Below are positions 1-22,743 of a DNA stretch of 23,199 bases, one piece after another. Position 1 is the first letter of the stretch; each line of letters begins with the position of its first letter. The stretch is from Methanobacteriota archaeon (GTDB lineage: Archaea; Thermoplasmatota; Thermoplasmata; UBA10834), in contig CP070736.1 of the NCBI GenBank assembly GCA_020347645.1, positions 920,451 through 943,649 of the forward strand, in the 5' to 3' direction. Made by a program: the position numbers and the translations under genes. Under the pieces are notes generated by a model. It saw only the letters and a list, made by a program, of their open reading frames with translations. It did not search any database and was not told the DNA's origin.

Positions 1-78
1 GACGACGCGGTTGAGGTTGTGCTCCTTGATCATCTCTTTGATCTTTTCCTGCGTGTCCTGCGAGCAGGTGTACAGGTT
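1..78. repeat. Near-identical 78-nt tract shared by two hdrA paralogues (partner at 3833..3910)
   Basis: Positions 1..45 are identical to 3833..3877, and the next ~33 nt differ at about 3 positions. Elsewhere the paralogues are clearly more diverged. Confidence 0.7.
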
Positions 79-1536
79 CTCTCCGGCGTACACCACATTC
101 GGAAGGGTTCTGGCGTACTCGGCCACAGAAGGCACCTTCACGACTCCTCCTATGTTGATTCCGCAGTGGCATACGAAGACGCCTATCCGCGGGTCCTGGT
201 TAGCGATGTCCAACTCATCTGGGTACTCCTTCTTGGTCACCAAAGTGTTTCTAGCCGATGCAATCTCCGCCCCCGCTTTCGCAGCAGCCCCACTAGCTTC
301 CGCGACGGTCATCGGTATGTCCTTCGGCGAGGAGAAGGCACCACTCACAAAGATGCCCTGCCTAGAGGAGCTGACAGGATCCATCAGCCCCGTCTTGCAG
401 AATCCATCCTTGTTAAGTTCGAAACCCATTATTTCGCTAAGCACCTCCGCGTCCTCTGGCGGTTCGAGGCCAACGGCTAGAACGACGAGTCCGAACTCCT
501 CCTCCTTAGGCTCGCCCTTCTCGACATATCTTACGACCAGATTTCTCGTTGCGGGGTCCTCGAAAACCGATGCAACCCTTGATCGCACAAACTCAATGCC
601 ATATTCATTCTGTGCCCTGTTGTAGTACTCGTCGAACTCCTTTCCAAACGCCCTCATGTCCATGAAGAATACCTTGGGTTTGATGTTGCCTCCATGCTCC
701 TTTGCGATTATGGCCTCCTTTATCGAATACATGCAGCAAACACCTGAGCAAAACTCGTTTCCCACTCGTTCATCTCTGGACCCGACGCATTGGATGAACG
801 CCACCTTCTCAGGGATATCGCCATCTGAGGGGCGCAGTACTGTGCCGAAATACGGACCCGTGGCACTCAACATTCTCTCGAACTCTATGCTTGTCACTAC
901 GTTCTTGTAGACGCCGTATCCGTACTCGCCCTTCCGGCGAGCGTCGAACTCGTCGAAGCCCGGCGATAGGATGATCGAACCGACTTTGATTTCTGAGATG
1001 TCTTCCTTTTGGTCATATACGATCGCTTCCGCCTTGCACTCCTCAGCGCATATACCGCAGCCTATGCATTTGTCATGGTCAATAGAGTACACCAGAGGAA
1101 CAGCCTGTGGGTAGCGAACATAGATCGCTTTGCGTATCTTCGTGTTCTCGTTGTATTCATCAGATGTTTCGATGGGACAAGTCTGGGCGCAAGAGCCACA
1201 ACCTGTGCACTTCGCGGCATCGATCCTCAACGCCCTCTGTTTCACGGTGACGGTGAAATTCCCGGCCTGTCCGTCCACCGCCGTGATGTCTGCATTCGTG
1301 ACCAAGGTGATGTTATGATGCCTGCCTGTCGATACGAGCTTTGGCGCCATTATGCACATCGCACAGTCGTTCGTGGGGAAGGTCTTGTCCAGCTGGGCCA
1401 TCGCGCCGCCTATGCTCGGCTGTTTCTCGACCAGATAGACCTTGAAGCCAGAATCGGCCAGATCAAGAGCGGACTGAAGGCCAGATATGCCCCCTCCTAC
1501 TACCATGACTGCACCGATCTTCTCGGTTGTCGCCAT
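1..1536 (-). CDS. hdrA: Heterodisulfide reductase subunit A-like flavoprotein, tandem-type paralogue (N-terminal 512 codons; gene continues past window start)
   Basis: The minus-strand frame is open from the ATG at 1536..1534 to position 1, with no stop, so it is absent from the ORF track. Translation starts MATTEKIGAVMVVGGGISGLQSALDLADSGFKVY (FAD Rossmann GxGxxG). It is followed by an inserted 2x[4Fe-4S] ferredoxin domain (CTGCGSC...CP, CIGCGICAEEC) and a later PRIGVFVCHCGINIG...CSQD...NRVV cysteine-cluster domain. Domain order matches the 1000-aa ORF at 2365..5367. The ATG overlaps the TGA of the upstream mvhD-like gene. Confidence 0.8.
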   Translation of the reverse strand, partial: MATTEKIGAVMVVGGGISGLQSALDLADSGFKVYLVEKQPSIGGAMAQLDKTFPTNDCAMCIMAPKLVSTGRHHNITLVTNADITAVDGQAGNFTVTVKQRALRIDAAKCTGCGSCAQTCPIETSDEYNENTKIRKAIYVRYPQAVPLVYSIDHDKCIGCGICAEECKAEAIVYDQKEDISEIKVGSIILSPGFDEFDARRKGEYGYGVYKNVVTSIEFERMLSATGPYFGTVLRPSDGDIPEKVAFIQCVGSRDERVGNEFCSGVCCMYSIKEAIIAKEHGGNIKPKVFFMDMRAFGKEFDEYYNRAQNEYGIEFVRSRVASVFEDPATRNLVVRYVEKGEPKEEEFGLVVLAVGLEPPEDAEVLSEIMGFELNKDGFCKTGLMDPVSSSRQGIFVSGAFSSPKDIPMTVAEASGAAAKAGAEIASARNTLVTKKEYPDELDIANQDPRIGVFVCHCGINIGGVVKVPSVAEYARTLPNVVYAGENLYTCSQDTQEKIKEMIKEHNLNRVV

Positions 1537-2363
1537 CAGCGCTCATCCCCCGTCGCGACGGTCCTGTAGACCGGTGTGAATCCTTCGGAGTGTTCCATTG
1601 CGATCTTGCTGTTCTGTCTAAGAAGAACGATGTGTTTCAGAATCCTGTCAGTGGGAACGTCCATGACCATTCCCAGCTGCTTGACCGACATCGGCCTTAT
1701 CCCTGCCAACTCAAGAATGAGAGCCCTCTCAAACTCGTCTACCACAGCGGTATCAATGATTCTTCCGAGTTTCTCGGGATCGAGTTTGTCGCCGTACGCG
1801 TTTCCTTTATTGAGAAGGTTGAACTCCTTCCCTATCAGCGCCTTCAATCTGAAAGTCTCTGAGGCGTTGTCGGCGGAAGCGGCCCTGACCTTCATCATAT
1901 CATCCGTGAGCACTCTACTCGTTCCAAGCCTCCGAATCTCCTCGGTGAATTCCGTGACGACCTTTGAGAACTTCTCTCCCTCAGACGCAGAAATCCATTC
2001 CAGTCTCAGGCGCGCCTCTTCGATGCCAGCTTCTCTGAGCAACCTTTTCATCAGGCCCACGCGTTTTTCCGTGTGGAAATTGCCCGTCATGTAATGACAG
2101 TCATTCAAGTGGCATCCCCCGATTAGGACGCCATCCGCACCTGCTTCGAACAAATCGAGTACGAGGTGCGGGCTGACTCTAGCGGAACACATCACTCTGA
2201 CTAGCCGGATGTTCGCAGGATACTGGAACCTGCTGACTCCGCACAGATCTGCGCCGGCGTACGAGCACCAATTGCACAAGAAGCCGACGATCTTCGGTTT
2301 CCTCTCTTTGCTAACGTCGGCCTGTACTTTGACCCCATGAGGAGGCTGATGCTTATCCGTCAT
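1536..2363 (-). CDS. mvhD: MvhD/FlpD-family [2Fe-2S] protein with a ~130-aa Cys-free C-terminal extension of unknown function
   Basis: 275-aa ORF. Residues ~20-145 carry the MvhD hallmarks FLCNWCSYAGADL...VMCSARV...GGCHLNDCHY. The C-terminal third (ALILELAGIRPMSVKQLGMVMDVPTDRILKHIVLLRQNSKIA) has no Cys and looks helical, possibly winged-helix-like. The stop overlaps the ATG of the next hdrA. Confidence 0.8.
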   Translation of the reverse strand: MTDKHQPPHGVKVQADVSKERKPKIVGFLCNWCSYAGADLCGVSRFQYPANIRLVRVMCSARVSPHLVLDLFEAGADGVLIGGCHLNDCHYMTGNFHTEKRVGLMKRLLREAGIEEARLRLEWISASEGEKFSKVVTEFTEEIRRLGTSRVLTDDMMKVRAASADNASETFRLKALIGKEFNLLNKGNAYGDKLDPEKLGRIIDTAVVDEFERALILELAGIRPMSVKQLGMVMDVPTDRILKHIVLLRQNSKIAMEHSEGFTPVYRTVATGDER

Positions 2364-2364
2364 G

Positions 2365-5300
2365 TCACCCCTCCTCCAAGGCTGCTCTGGCCATTGCGAT
2401 GAGTTGTTGGTCGGTGTAATGCGTCATGGTAATGGCTCCTTCAGGACAGGTGGCGCCGCAGCAACCGCAGCCCTTGCAAGCAGCGACGATCACTTCGCTG
2501 ACACCATCGCTATTCTTCCTCAAGGCGCTGAACGGACACACTTCTACACAAGTCCCGCAGCCTGAGCATTTGTCTTCGTCCACGACGCTTACCACACCCT
2601 CAGCCTCAATGGAGGATTTCGACAACACCGTGTTCACCCTGGCAGCGGCTGCCAGGGCCTGCGATATGCTCTCATCGATGAGCCTTGGCGAGTGCGCAAG
2701 GCCGCACAAGTAGATGCCATCCGTTGGGAAATCGACCGGCCGGAGCTTCATGTGGGCCTCCAAGAAGAACCCCTCCTTGTTCAGAGGGACCTTCAGCAGC
2801 TGCGCGAGGGCTTTGTTGTCCGGGTTGGGATGGACAGCAGCGTTGAGCACCAGATAGTCCGGTTTCAGAACGATTCTCTGCTCGATGAACTGCTCATCAA
2901 CATGTATCTCGATATCGTCTCCGTCCGCCTGCACCTTCGGTGGCGTTGAAGGGTCGTACCTGAGGAACTTGACTCCTAGGCGCGCAGCTTCGTTATAGTT
3001 TTCTTCGGAAAATCCGTAGGTTCTTATGTCTCTGAAGAGGACATACACCTCGGTATCGGGGTAGTCCTTCTTGATGCTTAGAGCGTTTGTCATCGCCGTT
3101 GAGCAGCAGATTCTGGAGCAGTTCGGGTGCTCGTCGTTTCGAGATCCGACACATTGGATTGTCACGATGCTTTTTGCATCGAATTTACCACTCGAGAGCA
3201 TGTCCCCTAGAGCAGTTTGCCTTATCACCTTCGGATGTTTGCCATACAGATATTCCGTGGGCTCGTACTCTATGGCCCCAGTCGCTACTACGATTGCGCC
3301 GTGTTCAATCTTCTCTCCATCCTTGAGGGTGCTCTCAAAGTTGCCGATATAGCCCTTGACGTCCTCGACGGTGTTCCCAAGATGAACAGTGATGTTCTCA
3401 TTGTGCAGCACTTCCTTCCTCAAGATGGCGAGGGTCCTCCGCGGGTCCACCCCGGCGAGAGTGCTGTGTATCGTCCTGAGATGTCCGCCAAGTTCTTTGC
3501 CCTTCTCGATTAGATGGACTTCGTATCCGGCCTTCGCAATCTCTAGGGCGGAGGTCATTCCACTTAGCCCTCCCCCGATTACGAGCGCGGCCGGCGTTAC
3601 GGGAATCTTGGGCTGTTGGAGCGCCTCAAGTCTGCTTGCTTTGGCTACCGCCATCCGCACGAGGTCCTTAGCCTTCTCCGTCGCAGCTTCGGGCTCCAGT
3701 CGATGGACCCATGAGCATTGATCTCTGATGTTAGCCATCTCGAACAGATATTTGTTCAGCCCCGCCTCTCTTACTGTGTTCTGGAACAGCGGTTCGTGTG
3801 TTCTCGGTGTGCAGCTAGCGACGACGACGCGGTTGAGGTTGTGCTCCTTGATCATCTCTTTGATCTTCTTCTGCGTGTCCTGAGAGCAGGTGTATGTGTT
3901 TGTCTCCGCGTAGACAACTCCTGGGAGTTTGGATGCGTACTCCATCACCTCCGGAACATTCACGACCGATCCAATGTTGATGCCACAATGACAAACGAAG
4001 ACACCTAGTCGCGGTTCCTGATTCGATAGGTCCATTTCTTCAGGGTATTCCTTCTTCGTAACGAGCTTTCCTCTTTGATCCGAGAGGAGAGCGGCAACTT
4101 TGCCCGCTGCGCCGCTCGCCTGGGCTATCGAGTCTGGGATGTCCTTTGGACCGGAGAACGCCCCACATACGAATATCCCAGGCAATGAACTGTCGACCGG
4201 CGAGAGTTCGTCGGTTTCGCAGAAACCGAACTTGTTGGTCTTGATCTTCAAGATCTCTGCGAGTTTGTGGGACATTTCCGGCGGCTCGGCACCGGCCGAG
4301 AGGACAACCATGTCAAAGGTTTCCTCGGAGATGTCAGCAGCGTCTATGAAGCTCAGAGAGAGATCATGGGTTTCCTTGTTCTGCTGAACTCCCGATATCC
4401 GATTGTTCCTGAAGACCCTGACGCCGTATTCGCTCTCCGCTCTCTGAAGGTACTCTTCGAACTCCTTTCCGAACGCACGTGTGTCCATGAAGAACATAGT
4501 TGTTTCGAGTCCAGGCAGATGCTCCTTGGCAATCACCGCTTGCTTCAGCGCCGCCATGCAACAATATGATGAGCAATAGGAATTGGGGGTCTGAGCGTCT
4601 CTCGATCCCACGCACTGAATGAATGCGATGCTCTTCGGCACATCGCCATCTGAAGGTCTGATGACGTGTCCTTCAGTGGGACCAGAAGCGCTGAGCATCC
4701 TTTCGAATTCGATATTGCTGACCACGTTCGCATAGACTCCATGGCCGTACGCGCTTTTCTTGGATGCATCAAACACTTGGTAGCCTGGAGCAAGGACGAT
4801 TGCGCCAACCTCCATCGTTTCGTCGATTTCAGAGTCCATATCGTATTCGATCGCATTCGCCTCGCAGAATTTCTCACATATGCCGCAACCGATGCACAAG
4901 CCTTTGTCGATAGTGTAGACTAGCGGCACTGCCTGAGGAAAAGGAACATAGATCGCCTTGGCCGGGGCGAGATCCCGTTCAAAGGAGTTTGCACCCTCGA
5001 TGGGACAGTGTTCAGCACAAATCCCACAGCAGGTGCACTTATCCTCGTTGATGAAGCGCTGATGTTTCGTGACCGTTACGCTAAACCTGCCCACTTCCCC
5101 TTCGACTTTCTTCAGCTCGGCGTTCGTAATAAGGGTGATGTTCTCGTGTCTTCCCGTGGCAACCAACTTCGGAGAAAGTATGCACATTGAGCAATCGTTT
5201 GTCGGGAAAGTCTTGTCCAACTGGGCCATCGTCCCTCCGATGCTGGGCGTCGTCTCTAATACGTAGACCTTGTACCCGGATTCCGCGAGGTCCAGTGCGG

Positions 5301-5367
5301 CCTGCATCCCGGCTGGTCCTCCGCCCACGACCAAGACCGCTCCGACAACTTCCTTCTTAGCCATCAT
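2365..5367 (-). CDS. hdrA: 1000-aa HdrA-like flavoprotein with two FAD/thioredoxin-reductase-like modules
   Basis: 1000-aa ORF. It has an N-terminal GGGPAGMQAALDLA FAD motif, an inserted ferredoxin (CTCCGICAEHCP, CIGCGICEKFC) and a central VFVCHCGINIG...CSQD...ASCTPRTHE...DQCSWVH cluster domain. A second Rossmann module follows (ALVIGGGLSGMTSALEIA ... CVGSRN ... CCST), then a C-terminal 2x[4Fe-4S] ferredoxin (CSGCGTCVEVCP, CKGCGCCGATCP). The ATG overlaps the TGA of mvhD (ATGA). Confidence 0.85.
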   Translation of the reverse strand: MMAKKEVVGAVLVVGGGPAGMQAALDLAESGYKVYVLETTPSIGGTMAQLDKTFPTNDCSMCILSPKLVATGRHENITLITNAELKKVEGEVGRFSVTVTKHQRFINEDKCTCCGICAEHCPIEGANSFERDLAPAKAIYVPFPQAVPLVYTIDKGLCIGCGICEKFCEANAIEYDMDSEIDETMEVGAIVLAPGYQVFDASKKSAYGHGVYANVVSNIEFERMLSASGPTEGHVIRPSDGDVPKSIAFIQCVGSRDAQTPNSYCSSYCCMAALKQAVIAKEHLPGLETTMFFMDTRAFGKEFEEYLQRAESEYGVRVFRNNRISGVQQNKETHDLSLSFIDAADISEETFDMVVLSAGAEPPEMSHKLAEILKIKTNKFGFCETDELSPVDSSLPGIFVCGAFSGPKDIPDSIAQASGAAGKVAALLSDQRGKLVTKKEYPEEMDLSNQEPRLGVFVCHCGINIGSVVNVPEVMEYASKLPGVVYAETNTYTCSQDTQKKIKEMIKEHNLNRVVVASCTPRTHEPLFQNTVREAGLNKYLFEMANIRDQCSWVHRLEPEAATEKAKDLVRMAVAKASRLEALQQPKIPVTPAALVIGGGLSGMTSALEIAKAGYEVHLIEKGKELGGHLRTIHSTLAGVDPRRTLAILRKEVLHNENITVHLGNTVEDVKGYIGNFESTLKDGEKIEHGAIVVATGAIEYEPTEYLYGKHPKVIRQTALGDMLSSGKFDAKSIVTIQCVGSRNDEHPNCSRICCSTAMTNALSIKKDYPDTEVYVLFRDIRTYGFSEENYNEAARLGVKFLRYDPSTPPKVQADGDDIEIHVDEQFIEQRIVLKPDYLVLNAAVHPNPDNKALAQLLKVPLNKEGFFLEAHMKLRPVDFPTDGIYLCGLAHSPRLIDESISQALAAAARVNTVLSKSSIEAEGVVSVVDEDKCSGCGTCVEVCPFSALRKNSDGVSEVIVAACKGCGCCGATCPEGAITMTHYTDQQLIAMARAALEEG
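3833..3910. repeat. Partner of the 78-nt hdrA-hdrA identity tract at 1..78
   Basis: See the feature at 1..78. The tract encodes the ...HNLNRVVVASCTPRTHE... segment of the Cys-cluster domain. Confidence 0.7.
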
Positions 5368-5810
5368 TGTGCACTCTCCTCGGAAATCGGACCGAGCGCT
5401 TCTAGTTCCGTCACCATCTGTTTAACAACGTCAGCGAATTTGTGTCCCTCAGAACCTGCAATCCATTCAACTCTGAAGCGTTGTGATTCTATCCCCGCAT
5501 CCTCTATGAACTCTGATAGGAAATCCCCTCTTATCGCAGTCTTCTCGTTGCCGTTTATGTAATGACAGTCGGAGGGATGACATCCAGCGATGATCACGCC
5601 GTCCGCTCCGAGCGAGAATGCTTTGAGCACGAAGGCCGGATCGACCCTGCCGGAACACATAACCCTTATGATCTTGACATTCGTGGGATACTGCAGCCTA
5701 GTTGTTCCTGCCAGGTCTGCGCCCGCATATGAGCACCAATTGCAGCAGAAAGCAACAATCTCTGGATTGTAGGCGGGTCGTTCTTCCCGGAGATTCGGAT
5801 GTCCATCCAT
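5364..5810 (-). CDS. mvhD: Methyl-viologen-reducing hydrogenase delta subunit-like protein (MvhD)
   Basis: 148-aa ORF with FCCNWCSYAGADLAG, RVMCSGRV and AGCHPSDCHY motifs typical of MvhD. Sits immediately upstream of hdrA, with a 4-nt ATGA overlap. Confidence 0.85.
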   Translation of the reverse strand: MDGHPNLREERPAYNPEIVAFCCNWCSYAGADLAGTTRLQYPTNVKIIRVMCSGRVDPAFVLKAFSLGADGVIIAGCHPSDCHYINGNEKTAIRGDFLSEFIEDAGIESQRFRVEWIAGSEGHKFADVVKQMVTELEALGPISEESAQ

Positions 5811-5812
5811 GG

Positions 5813-6730
5813 TTAGGTCCCCCTGAGCTTTCTGATAAACGAGTGTACAGAGACGTGATGCGTGTCAAAGCCGAGCGAGTTCGGATCGACCCCCATCGCG
5901 ATGGCCTGGAACTGGGATATGTGCATCACAGGTATCCCCTCCTTAGTGAAGGATTTCTGCGCGTTGTCAAATTGGAGGAGACAGAATGGACATCCCGTGA
6001 CTATGCAGTCCGCTCCGGCATCTGCGATCTTCCTACACTTGTCCTCAGTAATCGAATTGGCCAGCTCCACTACATGGGACCGAACACCGCCGCCGGCGCC
6101 GCAGCAGTCCAACTTGTCTTCGTATTCGATGCTGGTCGCGCCGCATTTCTCTATGATTAGGTCTATGTTGACCGGGTCGTTCGGGTCGTCAATCGTTTGC
6201 TTCTCGGTTGGTCTCAGGTAGTGGCATCCATAATGCACCGCGGCGCGCACATTGCTGAGGGGCTTCCTCGTCCTCTCTGCAATGGTTTCGAGACCAACAT
6301 CATTGATCATGACATCAACATAGTGTCGTACTTTCACTGGCCCCATCACTCGCCGTCGCCCCTCGGTCTTTGTGGGGATTCCAATGTACTTCCTGCCAAT
6401 CTGGGAGAGCACGCGGTTCACCCTGCCGAGGTTCTTTGGGTCGGCGAGGTTCTCGGTAGCTTTGAGCAATGAGGTGAGACAGCCGTTGCAGACGGTGAGG
6501 ATCTCCCTCCGCTCATTCTGAGCGAGCGTCAGGTTTCGCGCAGCTATAAGCAGCCAAGTCCTTTTGTCAGAGGAGTAGAATATGCCTGGAACGGGACAGC
6601 AGGAAAACTCCTCGATGTCCTCTACATCCAGGTTGAATCCGTCGCTACCGCAAACCCACCTGACAGCGTACTCTATGCCCGGATATCGGTTGGGTATGAC
6701 ACAGCCGAAGAAATAGGCGTACTGCGTCAC
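5813..6730 (-). CDS. hdrB: Heterodisulfide reductase subunit B (two CCG domains)
   Basis: 305-aa ORF beginning [18 protein letters not shown]. Contains both cysteine-rich CCG signatures (CCPVPG...C...CNGC and CCGAGGG...CPFC). The start codon is GTG and overlaps the hdrC stop (GTGA). Confidence 0.9.
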   Translation of the reverse strand: MTQYAYFFGCVIPNRYPGIEYAVRWVCGSDGFNLDVEDIEEFSCCPVPGIFYSSDKRTWLLIAARNLTLAQNERREILTVCNGCLTSLLKATENLADPKNLGRVNRVLSQIGRKYIGIPTKTEGRRRVMGPVKVRHYVDVMINDVGLETIAERTRKPLSNVRAAVHYGCHYLRPTEKQTIDDPNDPVNIDLIIEKCGATSIEYEDKLDCCGAGGGVRSHVVELANSITEDKCRKIADAGADCIVTGCPFCLLQFDNAQKSFTKEGIPVMHISQFQAIAMGVDPNSLGFDTHHVSVHSFIRKLRGT

Positions 6731-7311
6731 CCCCTCACCTCACTCTCTATGCCTATGAGCCTGTCATAGCCCGTGGAACGAACCAGCAGGTTAATCTCAC
6801 GTACGACTTTCGCGTATCCTCGAGTGCGCGACGGCATGTCTTCCAGGTCGAGCTCCCTCCTGACTCGCTCAATCTCAGAGTCAGGTTTGACGCTTTGGCC
6901 GTACTCGACGAGGTTTGTCGCAGCCAACTTGATGAAGGGTGGTATGACACCCTCCTTTATTGCCATGTGTCTGAGCGCTATCATCACTTCAGCAGGGTTT
7001 ATGTCGGCAGGGCAGTATTCATAACACCTGTAGCAGGTAGCACAGACCCACCTCATCTCAAGCGTGAACTTCTTAAGCCCAAACTGACAGAATTTGATTA
7101 TGCTTCTGGTCTTGTAGTCAATCTTGAGACTTATTGGACAGACGCCCGTGCAATTCCCGCATTGGAGACAAGTCATCACATCTTTGCCTCCATGCTTCAC
7201 GATTTCTTTGGCGAAATTCGGTTCAAGGTGCGACTCATCAATGATTTTGTCCTCGGCCAACTTCTCATGAAGGCCGCCTATGAATGTCTTCTCTACTTCT
7301 CCCATGATCAT
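6727..7311 (-). CDS. hdrC: Heterodisulfide reductase subunit C (2x[4Fe-4S] ferredoxin)
   Basis: 194-aa ORF with [12 protein letters not shown] and [12 protein letters not shown] motifs. The ATG overlaps the hdrA TGA (ATGA). Confidence 0.9.
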
Positions 7312-9473
7312 GCACCCTCCGCCCTATTCGCATCTTTCTTTGTCTTGCCGGCCGCCCTGCCAACACCTCCAAGGGCTGACGCGATTTCCGAAGTTATCTG
7401 CTCATCAGTGAACTGGTTCGCCGCTATGGCTTTTTGCGGACACGCCGGGACACAAGTCCCGCATCCATGACAGAGCGCTTCCACGATCTTCGCTTTTGAG
7501 CCCGTCTCGCTTTCGTGGACTTCCGGCGCGCCATAAGGACACATCTCAACGCACAGCCCGCATCCGACGCAAAGCTCTTCATCGACAATTGCTGTCAGAG
7601 GTTCAATTCTAACCTGTTTGCCAGCCATGATTGCGGCTGCGGATGCCGCAGCCGCTTTCGCCTGGGCCACCGAATCTGGGATGTCCTTGGGACCCTGTGC
7701 GCATCCCGCGAGGTATATGCCATCGATGGCGGTGTCGACAGGTCGGAGCTTTGGGTGCGCTTCCTGAAAGAATCCATCAGAGCTGAGAGAAAGCGGCAAG
7801 ACCTTGCCAATCCTCTTGCTTCCCTCGGACGGTTTGAGCCCCGTCGCTAGAACAATCAGGTCGAACTCCCTCTCCGTGATCTTGCTGAGCAGGGTCTCCT
7901 CCGCTCTTATCGTGATGGAGCCGGTTTCCGGATTCTCACTAAGCTTTGCTGGCCGACCTCTTATGAATTCAATTCCGTACTCTTCTCTAACGCGATGGTA
8001 CAGTTCCTCGAAGCCCTTCCCAAACGCTCTGATGTCATTGTAGTAAACAGCGATATCGGTGTCGGGTTGGTGCTCCTTGATTATCTGCGCATTCTTGATT
8101 GTATACATGCAGCAGACCCGCGAGCAGTAGGCGGATCCCAACTTCCTGTTCCTCGATCCTACGCATTGGATGAATGCAACCCTCTTTGGCGGCTTTCCAT
8201 CGGATGGTCTGATGAAATTCCCTCCAGTAGGACCCGAGGCGTTTATCAATCGTTCGAGTTCCAGGCCTGTTATGACGTTCCGGGACTCCCAATACCTGTA
8301 AACATCCCGCTTCTTCGGGACATATATGTCGAAGCCAGTGGCGCAAATGATCGTGCCGACTTTCAACTCAATTTCATCGTCGACAATTTCGTAATCTATT
8401 GCATCGTTGGAGCAAGCCTTGACACAAGCTCCGCATTTGCCGGTCTTGAAGTGAATGCAGTTCTCTCTATCGATCGTATACTTGAGCGGGACCGCCTGTG
8501 GAAAGGGAACGTAGATTGCCTTCCTCTTGCCAAAGCCTAGGTCGAACTTGTTGTCGACTTTGACCGGGCATGCGTCGGCACACACTCCACACCCGACGCA
8601 CTTGCTCTCATCGACATAGCGAGCCTTCTTCCTGACCTTCACATTATAATTGCCTATGAACCCGTGGATTTCTTCGACCTCGGAATATGAAAGGAGTGTG
8701 ATGTTTGGGTGCCTCGATAGCTCCACCATTTTGGGGGCCAATATACATATGGCACAGTCTCCCGTCGGAAAAGTCTTGTCCAATTGGGCCATGCGGCCGC
8801 CAATACTCGGCTCGGATTCGACGACGTAGACTTTAAATCCCATCTCCGCCAGGTCGAGTGCGGCTTGGATCCCCGCCACTCCTCCCCCAATAACCAGTGA
8901 CGATTGCTCTACGGGCACCTCTCTGGCCTCAAGCGGTTCTAGCCTTGCAGCCTTTGCTACCCCCATTCTCACTAGACCGATCGCCTTCTCAGTAGCCTTG
9001 TCTTTCTCTCGGGAGTGCACCCAAGAGCACTGCTCTCTGAGATTTACCATCTGCAACAGATACGGGTTGAGGCCAGCCTGCTTGACACAGTTCCTGAAAG
9101 TCGGTTCATGCATCCTTGGAGAGCACGCGGCAATGACAACTCTCTCGACCCCATTCTGTTTGATTGCAGAAATTATCTCATCCTGTCCAAGGTCTGAACA
9201 GGTGTACTTATTCTCTTTGGCAGTGACAACGCCCGGCAGCTTCTCTGCGGCCTCCCTGACTTTTGACGGATTAACGGTGCCTGCTATGTTGCTGCCGCAA
9301 TGACAGATGAAGACGCCTATACGCGGATTCGAAGAGATGCTATTCACCTCTCTCGCCGTTTCTCCGACTCCGTTTTCTCCGAGCGACTCATATGAATTCA
9401 CATCATCACTCCATGCTAAGACCGGCATTACTTCGTTTAGTCCGAGTAATCCCGCAATTACCGTTAAGCGCAA
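7308..9473 (-). CDS. hdrA: Heterodisulfide reductase subunit A, classical domain order (N-terminal Cys-cluster domain, FAD domain, inserted ferredoxin, C-terminal ferredoxin)
   Basis: The ORF-track start at 9473 is a TTG. In-frame alternatives are ATG at 9428 and a GTG at 9401 preceded by GGAGTGA, and the true N-terminus is probably one of these. Sequence shows [16 protein letters not shown]...CSDLGQ...AACSPRMHE...EQCSWVH, then [35 protein letters not shown]...CSRVCC, and C-terminal [12 protein letters not shown]...[12 protein letters not shown]. Confidence 0.9.
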
Positions 9474-9541
9474 AGACCGACTTAATTACTCGGCCCTGAT
9501 TTCATATCTGGAGATTAGTGTTTCGTGTAGCAGAAGGACAG

Positions 9542-16508: not shown

Positions 16509-16590
16509 GGTGCGCGTAAATGTCGATGAATCGGGTGGAGAGACAGGCGTAATCCGCTGAACGCTCAAGAGGGATTGATTTCCCTCGCTA

Positions 16591-16620
16591 AACCCTTTTC
16601 CCATATTCTGTTTATGTTGC
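16591..16620 (+). terminator. Possible oligo-T termination signal after the Kelch gene
   Basis: T-runs (CCCTTTTCCC, CTGTTTATGTT) within 110 nt downstream of the stop. Archaeal termination uses oligo-T. The placement is weak. Confidence 0.2.
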
Positions 16621-16633
16621 ATTGTCTCACAGC

Positions 16634-16718
16634 TACAGAGGGATTCGAACCTCTGCCAAGCCAGTAGGTCCGAAGTCGGAGGAAATCAAGAGGAATTTCG
16701 TACCGGGGACAAACCCTT
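16634..16718 (-). repeat. tRNA-like repeat copy A (T-arm/acceptor-like core plus ~60-nt extension)
   Basis: The reverse complement contains GGTTCGAATCCCTCTG... About 95% identical to copy C over ~85 nt. Same orientation as copies B, C, E and D. Confidence 0.6.
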
Positions 16719-16878
16719 TTCAATCATTCCATGCCGAGAGAACTACCCTCTTTCAAGAAATGAATTCACTCGGCACTGAATTCGACTCGTTGGCTATGTT
16801 CTAAGAAGCGATTGGAGATTTCGGGAAGAGTGTTGAGAAGATTGATATCCACCAGCAAGATTACCCTGTGAGTAATCC

Positions 16879-17520
16879 ATGCCGAACGATGAATTCTGGC
16901 CAGAGGAGGAAGTGAGGAAGTATACTACCGAGATGAAGGCCGTGACAATCACCGTCAACTTCATCGTCGAGGGTAAGCAGATGATACTATCCGTAGACAA
17001 CTTCGAGAAGCTGCTGCGCAAGGCATACAGAATCGCAATCATCGACTGCGAATGCAGGACCCGAGTGAAGGCGTGCAGCGCTCCAGTCGACGTCTGTATC
17101 TATATGAACGAGGGAGCGGACGACCAAGTCGGGTTAGGACGTGGGAAAGAGGTCTCGCTTGAGCAAGCCCTCGACGCCATAAGGAGAGCGCATGAGGCGG
17201 GGCTCGTCCATACAGCTTTTAGCGACATCGACGGGAAGGAACCGCAGTACATCTGCAGCTGCTGCTCGTGCTGCTGCCATACATTCCCCGCGCTGCAGAG
17301 ATACGGGTTCAGCGAGTATTTGGTCTCGTCCGAGATGATTGCTGCCCAAGACGACGATAAGTGTGACGACTGCGGACTCTGCGCAGACACATGCCACTTC
17401 AGAGCGAGGAATATTGTGAACGGACGCCTGAAGTATGACAAGAAGAAGTGCTTCGGTTGCGGTATTTGCATTCCCTCTTGCCCTAACGGCGCGATATCGA
17501 TGAAGAATAGGCACAATTGA
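16879..17520 (+). CDS. Cysteine-rich iron-sulfur protein with a C-terminal 2x[4Fe-4S] ferredoxin domain, function unknown
   Basis: 213-aa ORF. Has CECRTRVKAC...C, an unusual ICSCCSCCCH block, and then CDDCGLCADTC and CFGCGICIPSCP ferredoxin motifs. Confidence 0.75.
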   Translation: MPNDEFWPEEEVRKYTTEMKAVTITVNFIVEGKQMILSVDNFEKLLRKAYRIAIIDCECRTRVKACSAPVDVCIYMNEGADDQVGLGRGKEVSLEQALDAIRRAHEAGLVHTAFSDIDGKEPQYICSCCSCCCHTFPALQRYGFSEYLVSSEMIAAQDDDKCDDCGLCADTCHFRARNIVNGRLKYDKKKCFGCGICIPSCPNGAISMKNRHN

Positions 17521-17535
17521 GGATTCAATAAAGTT

Positions 17536-17622
17536 GGGGGCAGAGGGATTTGGACCTCTGCCGAGCCAGCATGTCCGAAGCCCAAGGGAATCAAGAGGAA
17601 TCTTGTACCAGGGGCGAACTCC
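17536..17622 (-). repeat. tRNA-like repeat copy B (diverged)
   Basis: GGGGGCAGAGGGATTTGGACCTCTGCCGAGCCAG... is homologous to copies A and C with many substitutions (T-loop reads TCCAAAT). It is read through by the artefactual N-terminus of track ORF 17534..18997. Confidence 0.5.
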
Positions 17623-17830
17623 TTTCTCCCTTGTCGTTCACCCAGCCAACGAGGACGATTCTGCAAATGTGTGCTGGTCACGGGTCAAACGCGATAGTTA
17701 TCGCTGCGCTGACAGGACGCGCGGATTCCGGGATTCGAACCAAGGAGTAGCCCGACATCCTTCCTTAATCGCAATTGAGTATGTGAAGATAGACAAGGTT
17801 GATATAGCGCAACCTGACTACGATTGGCGG

Positions 17831-18997
17831 GTGGTAGTAGTGAGGGGTGCAGCAATCAGTGTGGGAGTTGCGATTCTGCTGCTGTTCTCAGGCCTCAGTC
17901 TGATATCCCAAGATGTGGCAGCAAGTGGGTACGAAGATGGTGTCTCTCCGGATCGTACATTCTATCTGGATCGTGGTGGGGAGAAAGAGAACGGCAAGTC
18001 TTATGAGAGCACTCTCGTCCCTCCGTTCCCTGGTGAATGGTGGTTGGAACTACTGGTGCTCGATGGCGGTTCCGTCGAAGTATCGGTCTATTCCACATAC
18101 GTTCGAGGTCCTGCAATAGCCAAAATGAGCTTGGGCTCGATCGGGATGGTATCGGCACGTCTTCCGGTGACGGCCGGCTACTCTTACGACTTAACCTTCA
18201 AGATTGAAGGCGGTCCAGGCTACGCTGTTATGAAGGAACACTTCCTGTCAACCCTTCCGCCGCCCGCGGAGCTTCCTCCCTTCGGAACTGTACCACACGC
18301 CCCGATACATATCTGGTCCTATACCGACTATCTGGATCCATTGAACGACATATCTGGTTCGGGAACTGAAGACGATCCGTTTGTCATCGAGGGCTGGGAG
18401 ATAAGCGGAGGGGTTGAGGACGGCATCTGGGTGTGCGAGTCCAACTTCCATCTGGTCATCCGTGATTGCTTTGTCCATTCCATCGGCTACCCCAGCGCAG
18501 GCATATATCTCTTCGTGACCTCGAATGTCGTGATTGAGAATTGCTATGTTGAGAACTGTGTGGGTAGTGAGATTGCCATAGGCTCGTGCTCGTCAATCCT
18601 TGTCAGGAACTGCGTGATCTGGAACGATGTCTACACATATCATTCAACGGATTCCACGTTCGAAGACAACGTGATTGGGAAGTCCAGACTCTTGTTACAG
18701 CAGTGCAGCAGCATTACTGTGCGTGGAAACACGCTACGCGATGGCATGATTGCCTCGTACTTCATCGCCTGTAATGATTGCCTCGTGTACAACAACAACT
18801 TCATGGAAAACGGGCAGAATGTGTACATCTGGGAATCCGTGGCTGTCGTGTGGGATTGCGGCCCCGTCTTGGGAGGGAACTACTGGTCCGATTACACAGG
18901 AATCGACTCTGACGGTGACGGATTGGGTGACACTCCATATGAGATCGCTCCAGACTGCATCGACCGGTATCCCTTGATACTTCCCTATAGCGGATGA
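17831..18997 (+). CDS. Secreted right-handed parallel beta-helix repeat protein (NosD / pectin-lyase-like)
   Basis: Repeated beta-helix rungs (VIRDCFVHS, VIENCYVENC, VRNCVIWND, VRGNTLRDG, VYNNNFMENG). C-terminal GNYWSDYTGIDSDGDGLGDTPYEI...DRYPL motif typical of the NosD/beta-helix family. The start is uncertain: in-frame GTGs lie at 17783, 17831 and 17840, and the last gives a canonical signal peptide MRGAAISVGVAILLLFSGLSLISQDVAA. The first ~100 codons of the track ORF (from the TTG at 17534) translate repeat B and are unlikely to be coding. Confidence 0.75.
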   Translation: MVVVRGAAISVGVAILLLFSGLSLISQDVAASGYEDGVSPDRTFYLDRGGEKENGKSYESTLVPPFPGEWWLELLVLDGGSVEVSVYSTYVRGPAIAKMSLGSIGMVSARLPVTAGYSYDLTFKIEGGPGYAVMKEHFLSTLPPPAELPPFGTVPHAPIHIWSYTDYLDPLNDISGSGTEDDPFVIEGWEISGGVEDGIWVCESNFHLVIRDCFVHSIGYPSAGIYLFVTSNVVIENCYVENCVGSEIAIGSCSSILVRNCVIWNDVYTYHSTDSTFEDNVIGKSRLLLQQCSSITVRGNTLRDGMIASYFIACNDCLVYNNNFMENGQNVYIWESVAVVWDCGPVLGGNYWSDYTGIDSDGDGLGDTPYEIAPDCIDRYPLILPYSG

Positions 18998-19098
18998 ACT
19001 CCGAAGTACTGCGCGCCTTGGAGAACGCCATGCCAGGCACCCCCGGTGCAAAAACCCCCTTGATTTCTCGGGACGACGATTATACCGACTATGCGTGA
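18994..19098 (+). CDS. Conserved 34-aa small ORF (MNSEVLRALENAMPGTPGAKTPLISRDDDYTDYA), paralogue of 22038..22142
   Basis: The ATG overlaps the TGA of the beta-helix gene (ATGA). A 34-codon paralogue with the same length and phase sits before repeat D. The two differ at 28 nt, 13 of them in third codon positions, including 8 purely synonymous codon changes. The ORF ends 4 nt before repeat C. Confidence 0.4.
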   Translation: MNSEVLRALENAMPGTPGAKTPLISRDDDYTDYA

Positions 19099-19102
19099 GA
19101 GT

Positions 19103-19187
19103 GGGGGCAGAGGGATTCGAACCCCTGCCAAGCCAGTAGGTCCGAAGTCGGAGGAAATCAAGTGGAATTTCGTACCGGGACAAACCC
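19103..19187 (-). repeat. tRNA-like repeat copy C
   Basis: The reverse complement ends ...GGCAGGGGTTCGAATCCCTCTGCCCCCA (T-stem/TTCGAAT loop/acceptor-like). ~95% identical to copy A over 85 nt. Its left flank (the small ORF) is homologous to the flank of copy D. Confidence 0.6.
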
Positions 19188-19229
19188 TTTCATCCTGTCA
19201 TTTCTGAGGTGCGGGCGACTATCGGCATA

Positions 19230-19940
19230 TCAGGATAGTGGGTCATCGATTGGCCCATGGTCTATCCATGAGTAGAGTTGCCCATCATGGACTGCGATAC
19301 CGTACCCTTCCCGGGCCTCCTGGCCACCCGCAGTGCAATAGAGTTCGAGTTCATACACAATGTCCTCCAGGAACCCAACCGACGAAACTGAACCATCTCT
19401 GAACACGATATGGACGAACGAGAAAGTGTCCCCAGCGTTGAATACTTCTGGATCAGTTGCATCAGAGACGAAATACGCAGTCAGAGAGCGAACCTCGACT
19501 TCGCCATCGAAGTAGATGGAGTATCCCAGCAGGGGTAGGCTCTCAGCTTCATCGAGGGTTGCAGGGACGGAGAAAGCAGAGATTTCGATGAATTCCTCGC
19601 ACGAGAACGGGCAGTATTTTCCCGTCGAGCCATCATCACGGTACTCAGTCATGTATATCGAAATATTGGCGTATGCCCAGAATGGGACTTCGTTGAGAGA
19701 CTCATTGAAGTCCCTGTTCCAGGTTACCCCCCACGACTGAAGCGTCAAGGGCGTGTCCTGCATTGGATATGGGTCGTCTGGCTCGTCAAAAACCCCCTCA
19801 GAGGCAAGGCCGTATAGAGCGAAAGCCACGAGTACCAAGACCAGCACAACAGACAGAATCCTGATTTTCAGAACATCAGAAGGTCTTCTCGGAGGTTCAT
19901 TTCTCCCCGGCTGTCTCGGTTCTGCTGCCTCATCACCCAT
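19230..19940 (-). CDS. Hypothetical single-pass membrane protein (Pro/Arg-rich cytoplasmic N-terminus, extracytoplasmic domain)
   Basis: 236-aa ORF: MGDEAAEPRQPGRNEPPRRPSDVLKIR, then a TM helix ILSVVLVLVLVAFALYGLA. GAGGA SD about 10 nt upstream of the ATG. No recognisable family. Confidence 0.6.
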   Translation of the reverse strand: MGDEAAEPRQPGRNEPPRRPSDVLKIRILSVVLVLVLVAFALYGLASEGVFDEPDDPYPMQDTPLTLQSWGVTWNRDFNESLNEVPFWAYANISIYMTEYRDDGSTGKYCPFSCEEFIEISAFSVPATLDEAESLPLLGYSIYFDGEVEVRSLTAYFVSDATDPEVFNAGDTFSFVHIVFRDGSVSSVGFLEDIVYELELYCTAGGQEAREGYGIAVHDGQLYSWIDHGPIDDPLS

Positions 19941-20004
19941 TAGACCATTCCTCAGGTCGTGCTGAACATCTTCTCACGTACAAATATCCTCGGACCACCT
20001 ATCA

Positions 20005-20055
20005 GGAGCAGAGGGATTTGAGTCTCTGCTGAGCCAGTATGTCCAGAATCCGAGT
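20005..20055 (-). repeat. tRNA-like repeat copy E (short, degenerate)
   Basis: AGCAGAGGGATTTGAGTCTCTGCTGAGCCAGTATGTCCAGAATCCGAG aligns with the first ~50 nt of copies A, B and C. Same orientation. Confidence 0.45.
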
Positions 20056-20098: not shown

Positions 20099-21508
20099 CT
20101 ACTTCCCCTTCTCCCGCCGCCCATCGACAGAGTTTCTGCCTTCCTCGAGCTTGGATAACTCGGACTTCAAGTCCTTGTTCTCCTCCATGATTCCCGTGAG
20201 CACGCCCATGATGTCCTTGAAGCCAAGGTCATTGGGTCGAGCGAGTCTGTTCAGCACGCTCACGGCCGAGCTTTCACTCGCCACATCCAGGCTTTCGATG
20301 AGCTGGCCGAGGTCAAACCCAGATCTCGCAGAGTCTCCTCCAGCAAACACCTTCAGATCGGCAGATGTCAGAGCCTTTGCTGTCTCGAGCCCGATCTGTC
20401 TCTGCATCTCAACGAGACGCTCGGCGACCAGCGCTCTGATGGCTTCTGGTCCGAACCGGTTCAGGGCGTCCTGCAGCTTCATCTTTGCCTCAGCATCTGC
20501 GAGCCCCTTCTCTCTGATGGGAGCGGCTTCTCCCTTCGCCTTCTCGGACAGGTAGATCTTGTCTCCTTCTCCGTCGAGCCTCTTCCTCTCTTTGTTGATC
20601 TCCTCGACTTCCCTGTCCTGGTTGGCTACGACGAGGGCCTTCTGCTTGAGGATCTCGGCCATCTTGACCTCATCGACCCTCCTGACCTCGAACTGCTCTG
20701 CGAGGGCGACCTTCTCGAACTCCGCGACGGCCCGATCCTTCTCCTGCCGTCGTTTCGCGACCTCCTCATCCCTCCGAATCTCCCTCTTCGTGGCCTCCTC
20801 GTCCGTCTCCGCCTCTTTGAGCCTCGCGATCTTCCTCTGCTCGGCGTTCTTCTGCCTCGCCTCGCTGTTGATCTGCTCCTCGATGATAGACGATACGTCT
20901 CTGATCACGTGCGGAGGCTCCGCTTCGCCATACTCTGCTTTCGTCGGGTCCTGGAAGTAGACGAGCTCGATGTCCTTAAGGTCGATGCCCCAGTGACCTA
21001 TCGCCTCTCTCAGGGGAGGGTTGATTGTATCGATTATGTCCTGCCTATTGTTGATTATCTCCCTTATGGTCTTCTTCGTGCATGCATCCCTTGTTGTGGC
21101 CGTGACGATCATGGCCACTTGCCTCTCCAGTTCGGTTACATCGCCGCCGAACCTCTGTGCCGCCTTGACGGGAGTAGTGACTGCGACATAGGCGATGATG
21201 TTGCACAGAAATCGAGCCCTGTCTATGTCGAAAGCCATGAAGTTCGACACGTCAACCGTGATCATCCTCAGAGGAACCCTGTGTACGGTCATGCCCAGTC
21301 CGAAGAGGAAGAACCATGATGGAATCTTGAAGTACGCGGCCCTCCCCTCTCTGTTGTAATCCTTGTGCGGGGACAGAACGCGCATCTTGCCTTTCTGGAT
21401 GACTACGTCGACATAGTCTGCAGGGACTATGGTGTACATCGCTGCAAGGATCGCAAAGAGGATCAGCAGTACGATGATTATGATGAAGGTCAGAAGCCAA
21501 GTCTCCAT
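20099..21508 (-). CDS. SPFH/band-7 (flotillin-like) membrane protein with long Glu/Ala/Lys/Arg-rich coiled-coil region
   Basis: N-terminal TM helix LLTFIIIIVLLILFAILAAMY, an SPFH core, then an extended EA/KR-rich helical region (KNAEQRKIARLKEAETDEEATKREIRRDEEVAKRRQEKDRAVAEFEK...). I chose the ATG at 21508 (METW...), which is preceded by GGGGGGA and overlaps the upstream gene's TGA. The track's ATG at 21526 is the alternative. Confidence 0.85.
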   Translation of the reverse strand: METWLLTFIIIIVLLILFAILAAMYTIVPADYVDVVIQKGKMRVLSPHKDYNREGRAAYFKIPSWFFLFGLGMTVHRVPLRMITVDVSNFMAFDIDRARFLCNIIAYVAVTTPVKAAQRFGGDVTELERQVAMIVTATTRDACTKKTIREIINNRQDIIDTINPPLREAIGHWGIDLKDIELVYFQDPTKAEYGEAEPPHVIRDVSSIIEEQINSEARQKNAEQRKIARLKEAETDEEATKREIRRDEEVAKRRQEKDRAVAEFEKVALAEQFEVRRVDEVKMAEILKQKALVVANQDREVEEINKERKRLDGEGDKIYLSEKAKGEAAPIREKGLADAEAKMKLQDALNRFGPEAIRALVAERLVEMQRQIGLETAKALTSADLKVFAGGDSARSGFDLGQLIESLDVASESSAVSVLNRLARPNDLGFKDIMGVLTGIMEENKDLKSELSKLEEGRNSVDGRREKGK

Positions 21509-21768: not shown

Positions 21769-22037
21769 GCTCTCACTTCCCCCAGTACCCCTGGATCCAT
21801 ATGCGCGTGCGTCGACTCCGTGCGCATACCATTTCTCAGGATTGCATCAAACCTTTTTAACTCTGGCGATGGAATTCCGCTCGTGAATTTCGAGCCTTGG
21901 CCCCCTGATGTGGTTCACAGGGCTGCTTGCCTGAAGGCGACGCGGTTGCCGCTGAGCGAGGCGGCCGCATCGACGGCCCTTGGACACAGAAGGATCAAGG
22001 CCACGCAAGCGTGCTACTGCAAATAAGCATAGACACG

Positions 22038-22142
22038 GTGAATTCTGAGGTTCTGCAAACCTTGAACGACGCTGTGCTTGGCTACCCTGGTACGAAAAAC
22101 TCCGTGATTTCTCGGACGGACGATTACACTGGCTATGCGTAG
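22038..22142 (+). CDS. Conserved 34-codon small ORF, paralogue of 18994..19098 (GTG start; VNSEVLQTLNDAVLGYPGTKNSVISRTDDYTGYA)
   Basis: Homology to the copy-C small ORF begins exactly at the start codon (ATG there, GTG here) and runs to the stop, 3 nt before repeat D. The longer track ORF 21927..22142 adds an unconserved N-terminus. Confidence 0.35.
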   Translation: MNSEVLQTLNDAVLGYPGTKNSVISRTDDYTGYA

Positions 22143-22145
22143 GTG

Positions 22146-22316
22146 TGGGGGCAGAGGGATTTGAACCCCCATCGACGGGTTTCCACCACGTGGAGAGCGA
22201 CTCCACGCGTTCAGACATGGGTCATCGCTCCAGTTACTCATCACTGGTCAGCAAACCCAACGGAAATCATTCCCATAACTGGAGCCCGTTAGGATCCCAG
22301 GTTACCCCATACCCCC
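22146..22316 (-). tRNA. tRNA-like gene, possibly intron-containing or disrupted (repeat copy D)
   Basis: Minus-strand sequence starts GGGGGTA-TG-GGGT-AACCTGGG-ATCC. That gives a 7-bp acceptor stem that pairs with the 3' TGCCCCC-A, plus U8, A14, a GG in the D-loop and a 4-bp D-stem. It ends GGGGG-TTCAAAT-CCCTC-TGCCCCC-A, a near-perfect T-arm. A 5-bp AACGG/CCGTT stem encloses 22 nt, which would be an anticodon loop plus intron. About 87 nt lie between that stem and the T-arm, including a perfect hairpin CGTGGAG-TCGCT-CTCCACG. Confidence 0.3.
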
Positions 22317-22342: not shown

Positions 22343-22450
22343 CTACTTCTTCCTGAGCTTCTGAGCTCTCTTGCGTCTCCTCATCTTCTTCTTGCGCCAC
22401 TTCCAGCGCTGTTTTCCACGTTTCTTCCACGCTCGAGAACTCCTTTTCAT
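22343..22450 (-). CDS. rpl41e: Ribosomal protein L41e
   Basis: 36-codon minus-strand ORF: MKRSSRAWKKRGKQRWKWRKKKMRRRKRAQKLRKK. It is extremely basic, with the RWKW...RKKKMRR pattern of archaeal/eukaryotic L41e. GGAG SD about 10 nt upstream and a TATA box about 48 nt upstream. Too short for the ORF track. Confidence 0.7.
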   Translation of the reverse strand: MKRSSRAWKKRGKQRWKWRKKKMRRRKRAQKLRKK

Positions 22451-22503: not shown

Positions 22504-22743
22504 CTTTTGATGGGGCGCAGCGGGCCGGTCGGGATTTTCGGACGCTTCGGCGCCTTTCGAACCCGAGACCACTGGCTGTCCTCGGTCCATAGGATGAACC
22601 ATAGAAGGCCAGTGCTATATCCGGACTAAGCCACCGGCCCATCTGGCCGGAAGACACATGAGTCCTCCTGTATAAAACCTTGGCTGAATCGACGAAATCA
22701 TTGCGAAGGCCCGCCTCTTCCCCGTCCTGTTCATGCGAACGCT

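Follow-up and report, generated by a model that had tools for sequence, protein, structure and literature searches.

That the intron of tryptophan transfer RNA (tRNA-Trp) can serve as a box C/D guide, acting on Cm34 and Nm39, has belonged to the textbook knowledge of archaeal RNA since 2000-2001, and Clouet d'Orval et al. in 2001 and Singh et al. in 2004 are said to have dealt with the box C/D RNA encoded in the pre-tRNATrp intron of Haloferax volcanii. The tRNATrp intron of H. volcanii (103-105 nucleotides, nt) contains a box C/D RNA through which C34 and U39 become 2'-O-methylated (PMC7714728, PMC4090602, PMC7994747). The guide works either on the precursor or in trans; it is set free as a stable circle and is not needed for viability (PMC7714728, PMC4090602, PMC3326292, PMC7994747). 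Stable circles of the excised tRNATrp intron are known from Haloferax, Sulfolobus and Thermococcus (PMC3326292, PMC9014305). Pyrococcus sR50 is a tRNA-Trp intron that is also a C/D small RNA (sRNA) (PMC7994747), the tRNATrp intron of Thermococcus kodakarensis is circular (PMC9014305), and the Sulfolobus tRNATrp intron, which has 65 nt, was reported to be without consensus boxes (PMC3326292). Here we describe a tRNA-Trp(CCA) gene with an intron that likely encodes such a guide, at positions 22146-22316 on the minus strand of a 23,199-nt stretch of DNA from a Thermoplasmata archaeon (contig CP070736.1, positions 920,451 to 943,649), which we refer to as the window. What is new is a further instance of a known arrangement, in an uncultured member of the Thermoplasmata.

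ARAGORN with introns allowed made a single call at its default threshold in the 23-kb window, tRNA-Trp c[22145,22316] (cca) i(37,98). The gene has 171 nt with its intron and runs on the minus strand from the 5' end at 22316 to the discriminator A at 22146, and the CCA end is not encoded. The 5' exon (22279..22316) supplies tRNA positions 1-37 with 17a and carries the anticodon CCA at 22282..22280, the 98-nt intron (22181..22278) occupies the canonical 37/38 site, and the 3' exon (22146..22180) supplies positions 38-73. Deleting 22278..22181 gives a spliced 73-mer that ARAGORN folds into a canonical cloverleaf with nothing left over. The cloverleaf has an acceptor stem GGGGGUA/UGCCCCC of 7 base pairs (bp) with one U-G pair, followed by the discriminator A; it carries U8, A14, G18G19 and the T arm GGGGG-UUCAAAU-CCCUC, and its anticodon stem ACGGG/CCCGU closes the 7-nt loop CUCCAGA with U33. 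The D stem contains a U13-U22 mismatch and a G10-U25 pair. A first-pass annotation of this DNA had recognised a 171-nt tRNA-like gene with canonical ends and about 100 nt of internal extra sequence; all the features it listed are present, on the minus strand, and the extra sequence is the 98 nt of one intron at the canonical site. Its reading is partly supported: it was right about a tRNA gene with an archaeal-type intervening sequence, while none of the three options it offered (a multi-intron tRNA, a disrupted tRNA or a tRNA-derived structured RNA) is quite correct.

At default settings, ARAGORN found no tRNA anywhere in the 23-kb window, and Rfam at the gathering threshold had no match anywhere in it. 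The 98-nt intron, which breaks the tRNA model, explains both blanks at the tRNA-Trp; for Rfam, the narrowness of the archaeal sRNA families adds to it. The lack of a covariance-model hit, which the earlier annotation had offered as a refutation and which was indeed observed at the gathering threshold, is therefore misleading for a gene of this kind. We also considered moving the splice sites to 36/37, which would give A37, and rejected the shift: the conserved pairs fix the bulges A36 G37/U and AA/A38 (the slash marks the cut), and the intron-less relatives mostly read CUCCAGA. Judged from its sequence, 22146-22316 is, with very high confidence, a genuine tRNA-Trp(CCA) gene with one canonical intron, and the gene is probably essential.

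The intron contains the elements of a double-guide box C/D sRNA, all on the minus strand. From 5' to 3', they are the terminal-stem strand UAUGGG (22277..22272); the C box AUGAUUU (22264..22270), the last three nt of which are non-consensus; the 12-nt D' guide CCGUUGGGUUUG (22252..22263); the D' box CUGA (22248..22251); a CCA spacer of 3 nt; the C' box GUGAUGA (22238..22244); the 12-nt D guide GUAACUGGAGCG (22226..22237); the terminal D box AUGA (22222..22225); and the second terminal-stem strand CCCAUG (22221..22216), so that the whole sRNA module spans 22216..22277. A spacer, a 7-bp hairpin CGUGGAG-UCGCU-CUCCACG (22189..22207) and GUGGUGGAA, the 3' terminal segment of the intron that ends at the 3' splice site, complete the intron. 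All four boxes were placed with the Rfam sR3 alignment and a box table. The C-box-like and CTGA motifs seen in the first pass are the C' box (GTGATGA) and the D' box, respectively.

By pairing and the N+5 rule, the D guide is predicted to target C34 and the D' guide C39. The D guide makes 11 of 12 pairs with the pre-tRNA from position 30 to intron base 4 (G31-G37 plus intron bases 1-4), with C34 at N+5 and a predicted duplex energy of -18.2 kcal/mol. The D' guide makes 10 of 12 pairs with positions 35-46 of the spliced tRNA (C35-G45), with C39 at N+5 and a predicted energy of -12.5 kcal/mol, and 9 of 12 pairs with the unspliced junction. Such pairing goes well past chance: the probability that a random 12-mer matches it in register is ~8e-5 for C34 and ~4e-4 for position 39. 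The 10-bp long-range helix noticed earlier (GCTCCAGTTA/TAACTGGAGC) is a real pairing of 11 pairs that co-varies in the 51 genes described below, but it is the D guide on the anticodon loop and not a fold of the intron on itself. The AACGG/CCGTT stem is likewise present in this sequence, but it is paired in only 53 % among homologues and is not a structural element; it is a chance pairing peculiar to this lineage, in which the first bases of the D' guide take part. By analogy with the systems described above, we think it quite likely that the intron encodes a complete double-guide box C/D sRNA predicted to methylate C34 and C39 of its own tRNA.

The window gene shares with the Haloferax system the host tRNA, Trp(CCA), the 37/38 site, the intron size class (98 versus 103-105 nt), the box order and the guide spacing. 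Both introns hold a double-guide C/D RNA aimed at host positions 34 and 39, and each system draws exon-intron junction sequence into its guide duplexes, which cannot coexist with the bulge-helix-bulge (BHB) fold. On the other hand, Haloferax has U at position 39 where the window gene has C, the terminal boxes here (AUGAUUU and AUGA) are non-consensus with a compensating U-A pair, the window gene adds the co-varying 7-bp hairpin after the sRNA, and a C34 mismatch is constant in the central splice helix. Because the host tRNA, intron site, box order, guide spacing and both targets match, we conclude by analogy that the window gene would act like the Haloferax system and that the differences are minor.

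With Pyrococcus sR50 and Thermococcus, the window gene shares a C/D sRNA inside a euryarchaeal tRNA-Trp intron, with predicted BHB release and circularisation. The Pyrococcus and Thermococcus introns are shorter and hold little beyond the sRNA, and their likeness to the window intron is confined to the boxes; the Rfam snoPyro_CD match of the window intron has 16.7 bits and E = 9.6. The best Rfam match is sR3 (RF01133), a crenarchaeal C/D sRNA, to which 22274..22220 aligned over the full length (1-55 of 55) in a permissive scan with 20.6 bits and E = 0.06. The same guide cores recur in the sR3 consensus (CGGGUCUG-CUGA, UGGAGCa-CUGA; GGGU.UG, UGGAGC), and we infer C39 and C34 of a tRNA-Trp as the sites that its guides would address. 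The sRNA of the window intron thus appears to be a functional analogue of sR3 that stands outside the family by score.

To place the gene among its relatives, we scanned one genome per species with the T-arm/acceptor pattern alone as query, the intron being outside the query, and obtained at least 120 loci. Those listed are almost all from Thermoplasmatota (Methanomassiliicoccales, Poseidoniales and other Thermoplasmata metagenome-assembled genomes, MAGs). Among the matches listed, at least 69 tRNA-Trp genes are interrupted at the same site by an intron of 83-111 nt, and at least 29 are intron-less tRNA-Trp genes, mostly with the anticodon loop CTCCAGA. The closest of them (L029, L025, L012, L008, L078 and L072) have introns that are identical or 1-3 positions off, and their flanks are ~82-90 % identical to those of the window gene, which puts the source archaeon in their Thermoplasmata clade; L025 and L029, like L155, come from sediments. 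The cultivable Methanomassiliicoccus and Methanomethylophilus have this architecture too. From the matches listed, we aligned 51 distinct intron-bearing tRNA-Trp genes (the window gene and 50 others; alignment A1), to which the counts below refer.

In all 51 genes, the extra sequence sits between positions 37 and 38. A tRNA with two or more introns, as in Thermoproteales, might be suspected from the neighbouring tRNA-Arg(TCT), whose T loop holds one of its two introns, and the first-pass annotation had named a multi-intron tRNA among its options; but removal of a single contiguous 98-nt block at 37/38 restores the full tRNA-Trp cloverleaf, and with the same placement in every homologue this explanation is extremely unlikely.

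The anticodon stem that brackets the intron is fully paired (100 %) in the 51 genes, and pair 27:43 is G-C in 28 of them and A-U in 23. Over its 10 pairs, the duplex of the D guide with its target is paired in 99.8 %; compensatory changes affect three pairs (at G37 and intron bases i2 and i3), and in Poseidoniales genes with A37 the guide has U in place of C. The terminal stem of the sRNA also co-varies: it is 98.5 % paired over the 4 inner pairs, one of which appears as G-C in 32 genes and as A-U in the other 19. The 7-bp 3' hairpin, which the earlier annotation had correctly read as CGTGGAG/CTCCACG (22207..22189), has 7 of 7 pairs altered on both sides across the alignment. The guides have a length of exactly 12 nt from C to D' in 49 of 51 genes and from C' to D in every gene, and the D' box (CUGA in 50/51) and the C' box are near-invariant. 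For the D' guide in the C39 register, all 8 box-proximal pairs are intact in 46/51 genes. A placement of the D' guide on the D arm (C23), which ties with C39 in this single sequence, is kept in 0/51 genes and was rejected.

These data also bear on whether the gene could be a decaying tRNA pseudogene with an intron-like insertion in the anticodon loop. The default tRNA and Rfam scans are blank, as a pseudogene would have it, and the gene borders a region full of degraded mobile-element remnants. However, the same intron-bearing architecture is kept in 51 distinct genes spanning several orders, with compensatory changes in the stems that span the insertion and with invariant boxes; the linkage of eL41 with tRNA-Trp is conserved, and the splice-site geometry is preserved. 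A pseudogene is therefore very improbable, and the disrupted tRNA proposed in the first pass is contradicted by the same conservation. Nor is it a tRNA-derived structured RNA; it is an ordinary intron-bearing tRNA-Trp gene.

Cuts after G37 and before A38 yield a BHB geometry in which helix h is the anticodon stem. The 5' bulge is A36-G37/U and the 3' bulge is A-A/A38, the central helix sets C32-C35 against G-G-U-G, and helix h' is formed by intron bases 2-3 with n-6 and n-7. The 3' strand of the motif lies at 22181..22188 (minus strand), where G and U pair with intron nt 2-3 (h'), GUGG stands opposite C32-C35, and AA together with A38 makes the 3' bulge. The outer pairs of the splice helix, 32:(n-2) and 35:(n-5), are invariant C-G pairs (51/51 genes), and in h' both pairs co-vary, the one as U-A, U-G or C-G and the other as A-U in 47 genes and G-C in 3. 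Intron bases 2-3 thus co-vary with the D guide as well as with h', a pattern to be expected if the RNA switched between a guide form and a splicing form, which is how the Haloferax intron has been described.

We propose the following pathway. The tRNA-Trp gene would be transcribed, probably together with the upstream eL41 gene, and L7Ae, Nop5 and fibrillarin would load onto the terminal C/D kink-turn and the internal C'/D' motif. The 12-nt D guide would then bind positions 31-37 and the first four intron bases and bring the methyltransferase to C34, and the 12-nt D' guide would bind positions 35-42 and bring it to C39. The precursor would next refold, with anticodon-loop positions 32-35 pairing with the 3' end of the intron in a 3-4-3 bulge-helix-bulge, after which the splicing endonuclease would cut both bulges and RtcB would join the exons and circularise the intron. 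The circular intron could persist as a trans-acting small ribonucleoprotein (sRNP). In this Thermoplasmata/Methanomassiliicoccales lineage, the constant C34 mismatch, the co-variation that links intron bases 2-3 three ways with the D guide and h', and the additional conserved hairpin could also reflect an ordered maturation switch, in which sRNP assembly and C34 methylation precede and gate the splice motif; alternatively or in addition, the excised circular intron may serve further targets in the T loop or in ribosomal RNA (rRNA). Taken jointly, we regard these two extensions as unlikely.

Several points weigh against a self-modifying tRNA-Trp with a C/D sRNA in its intron. The sR3 score of 20.6 bits falls short of the gathering score of 41, so that the intron does not qualify as a member of sR3. 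The terminal boxes are off consensus (AUGAUUU for RUGAUGA and AUGA for CUGA); the sheared-pair nucleotides UGA and GA are kept in these C and D boxes despite the non-consensus remainder, and position 6 of the C box pairs with position 1 of the D box as U-A in 47 genes and as G-C in 3, the two never being unpaired. Since this kink-turn pair is maintained, the non-consensus terminal boxes appear to be compensated. The core of the D' guide, GGGUUUG, hardly varies, and the D' target therefore rests on conservation and not on co-variation. C34 has no partner in the 4-bp splice helix of 45/51 genes, U33 pairs in 45/51 but mostly as G-U, and the enforced BHB fold has -56.6 kcal/mol versus -77.1 kcal/mol for the unconstrained minimum, which is ~20 higher for the naked RNA. 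The copy number of tRNA-Trp is known from the 23-kb window alone. Finally, the support consists of sequence, conservation and co-variation, and protein binding, methylation, cleavage, ligation and circularisation are extrapolated from Haloferax, Pyrococcus and Thermococcus.

The D' guide also pairs almost equally well in a T-loop register, and the sRNA could accordingly be real but have working targets other than C34 and C39 of its host, either with the D' guide on U60 of the T loop or with the circular intron acting on rRNA or other tRNAs in trans. The guide makes 9 of 12 pairs with positions 56-67, with N+5 on U60, and elsewhere the excised tRNATrp introns are stable circles (PMC3326292, PMC9014305). 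This register is kept in 38/51 genes, a count that is uninformative because the T arm was preset by the search pattern. The C39 register is the better one, with its box-proximal pairs intact in more of the genes, whereas the U60 register puts the target nucleotide in a G-U pair. Furthermore, the D guide co-varies with G37 and the first bases of the intron, which ties it to its own precursor, and the precedent is for positions 34 and 39 (PMC7714728). Other working targets are thus distinctly unlikely, and we hold with good confidence that a functional tRNA-Trp gene with an intron-encoded double-guide box C/D sRNA is the best overall explanation.

The 3' end of the tRNA-Trp gene has a second role, for the last ~22-24 nt of the 3' exon (22146-22169) double as the core of an attachment (att) site. 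A repeat scan found four partial copies of the tRNA-Trp 3' end, ~50-220 nt long, downstream of the gene and on its strand (16550-16776, 17468-17669, 19025-19245 and 20003-20054, minus). They repeat the last ~24 nt of tRNA-Trp together with conserved arms, and the units bracket one or two cargo genes each (SPFH, a protein of 236 amino acids (aa), NosD-like and Fer4). The earlier remark that 22146-22316 is the sole copy in the repeat family with a 5' half is confirmed: the partial copies are without the 5' acceptor strand, which is explained if they are att junctions of the tRNA 3' end. Homologous units are found 1-3 kb downstream of tRNA-Trp in at least 10 related genomes (L010, L015, L029, L039, L063, L105, L108, L120, L155 and L172) and in 51 metagenomic contigs. 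In L063 the outer neighbours are HypB and HypF as in the window, yet there is one unit only.

A Pfam screen of 133 neighbouring open reading frames (ORFs), in which a recombinase probe located the candidates and Pfam confirmed them, gave two tyrosine recombinases. The integrase at L161:4700-5827 ends in ...DDYTGYA-stop, with the stop ~5 nt from the intact tRNA-Trp 3' end and att core. Its homologues at the same spot are full-length in L168, frameshifted in L155 and represented by the C-terminal half in L172. The window has two C-terminal integrase remnants of 42-53 codons (...DDYTGYA-stop) on the plus strand, one at 21999-22139 that abuts tRNA-Trp and one at 18970-19095 that abuts repeat unit C. 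Archaeal tyrosine-recombinase elements target the 3' part of tRNA genes (PMC6563490, PMC5495485), and the window resembles them in that the tRNA 3' end is directly repeated, an integrase lies beside att, and arrays have formed by re-use of the site. It differs from them in that the integrases are remnants and the units, 0.9-2.1 kb long, have one or two cargo genes. We interpret the repeats as the att junctions of successive decayed tyrosine-integrase elements that recombined with the last ~24 nt of tRNA-Trp.

With the att core common to the four partial copies and an integrase remnant abutting its 3' end, the tRNA-like sequence might itself be thought a mobile-element-borne tRNA or an att site and not a host gene. 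Against this, the 5' side of tRNA-Trp (eL41, tRNA-Arg and a PAC2-family gene) is syntenic in 7-8 genomes, and the variation is confined to the 3' side, a variable hot spot. Integration into the 3' part of a host tRNA gene, by which the gene is regenerated, is the standard pattern (PMC6563490), and the element-derived portion would be the terminal ~24 nt at most. That the gene came with an element is hardly credible, and we retain the host tRNA-Trp gene.

The Fer4 gene cassette (gene at 16879-17520, cassette ~16641-17530) is ~89 % identical overall to L105 (~3050-3994) and L061 (~1532-2403), two other species-level genomes. Most 30-nt windows have 90-100 % identity with L105/L061, compared with ~75 % in the core flanks, and the block of identity extends from just past one ...CCCUCUGCCCCCA core to the next ...AAUCCCUCUG. 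The sequences suggest that the cassette moved horizontally in recent time, although it has no intact integrase with it. Within unit A (16700-16740, minus strand; also in L061 and L105), AATGATTGAAAAGGGTTTG resembles the C box and D' guide of a Methanomassiliicoccales-type intron (GTGATTGAAAATGGGTTTG-CTGA) and is without the D' box. The 5' part of unit A may be a relic, in that the attP of an element once carried a longer piece of tRNA-Trp from another host.

Other readings of the partial copies were tried and dropped. They are not halves of a split tRNA, being without the 5' acceptor strand, and not working sRNAs, as the intron-like part is without a D' box. An integron-like attC array was suggested by the one gene per unit and by the fact that no recombinase was found at first in the window or in 10 array-side ORFs; it was abandoned because a tyrosine integrase abuts tRNA-Trp in the metagenomic relatives and C-terminal remnants are present in the window. 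A paper on archaeal integrons makes no mention of tRNA-linked arrays. The nearby repeat family is thus explained as integration scars and not as RNA genes.

Further matches of the scans are noted for completeness. Relaxed-threshold ARAGORN with long 'introns' gave extra calls at 17719-17828 (-), 19101-19332 (-), 2207-2484 (-) and 8032-8281 (+), which look like false positives in coding regions or att units, 19101-19332 being unit C. Weak Rfam matches to the sR14 and sR30 C/D families at 19914-19963 (-, E = 9.6) and 20459-20500 (-, E = 3.3) are probably due to chance; GGUGAUGAGG lies inside the sR14 match, at the start of the 236-aa ORF. Two alphaproteobacterial MAGs (L056 at 6358-6599 and L096 at 5682-6010) have three tandem copies ~110 nt apart that end in a GGTTCAAATCCCTCTGCCCCCACCA motif and have no relation to the archaeal gene. 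The sole match in a scan of viral contigs was a bacterial-type tRNA-Met, which is unrelated.

Upstream of tRNA-Trp, an ORF of 35 codons, MKRSSRAWKKRGKQRWKWRKKKMRRRKRAQKLRKK, at 22343-22450 (minus strand) matches the archaeal L41e chains in PDB (E ~0.002) and is assigned to eL41; Pfam and NCBIfam had no match for this 35-aa ORF. It ends 26 nt upstream of tRNA-Trp, and the linkage is conserved across Thermoplasmatota, including the lineages with an intron-less tRNA-Trp, which suggests that eL41 and tRNA-Trp may be co-transcribed. Next to it, at 22520-22640 (minus strand), is a tRNA-Arg(TCT) gene that default scans missed. It has a canonical 24-nt intron (22601..22578) with a textbook BHB and an intron of ~21 nt in the T loop (~22555..22535). 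To our knowledge, non-canonical T-loop introns are uncommon outside Thermoproteota.

For annotation, the consequence is that default scans miss both tRNAs of the window, and the organism would seem to be without tRNA-Trp and tRNA-Arg(UCU). For uncultured Thermoplasmatota, the 51-gene alignment provides clean co-variation in support of both the guide-target duplex and the alternative splice fold, and it indicates that terminal C/D boxes can drift off consensus while the kink-turn pair stays compensated. An exact-sequence look-up of two window proteins returned no record. In the rest of the window, the repeat families D1 and D5-D13 (1-9500) are paralogous genes, namely two or three HdrA-like flavoprotein/ferredoxin and MvhD (FlpD) genes with HdrB/C-like genes, and the region beyond them, at 9.8-14.5 kb, carries HypD, HypA, HypF and a HypB-like GTPase.

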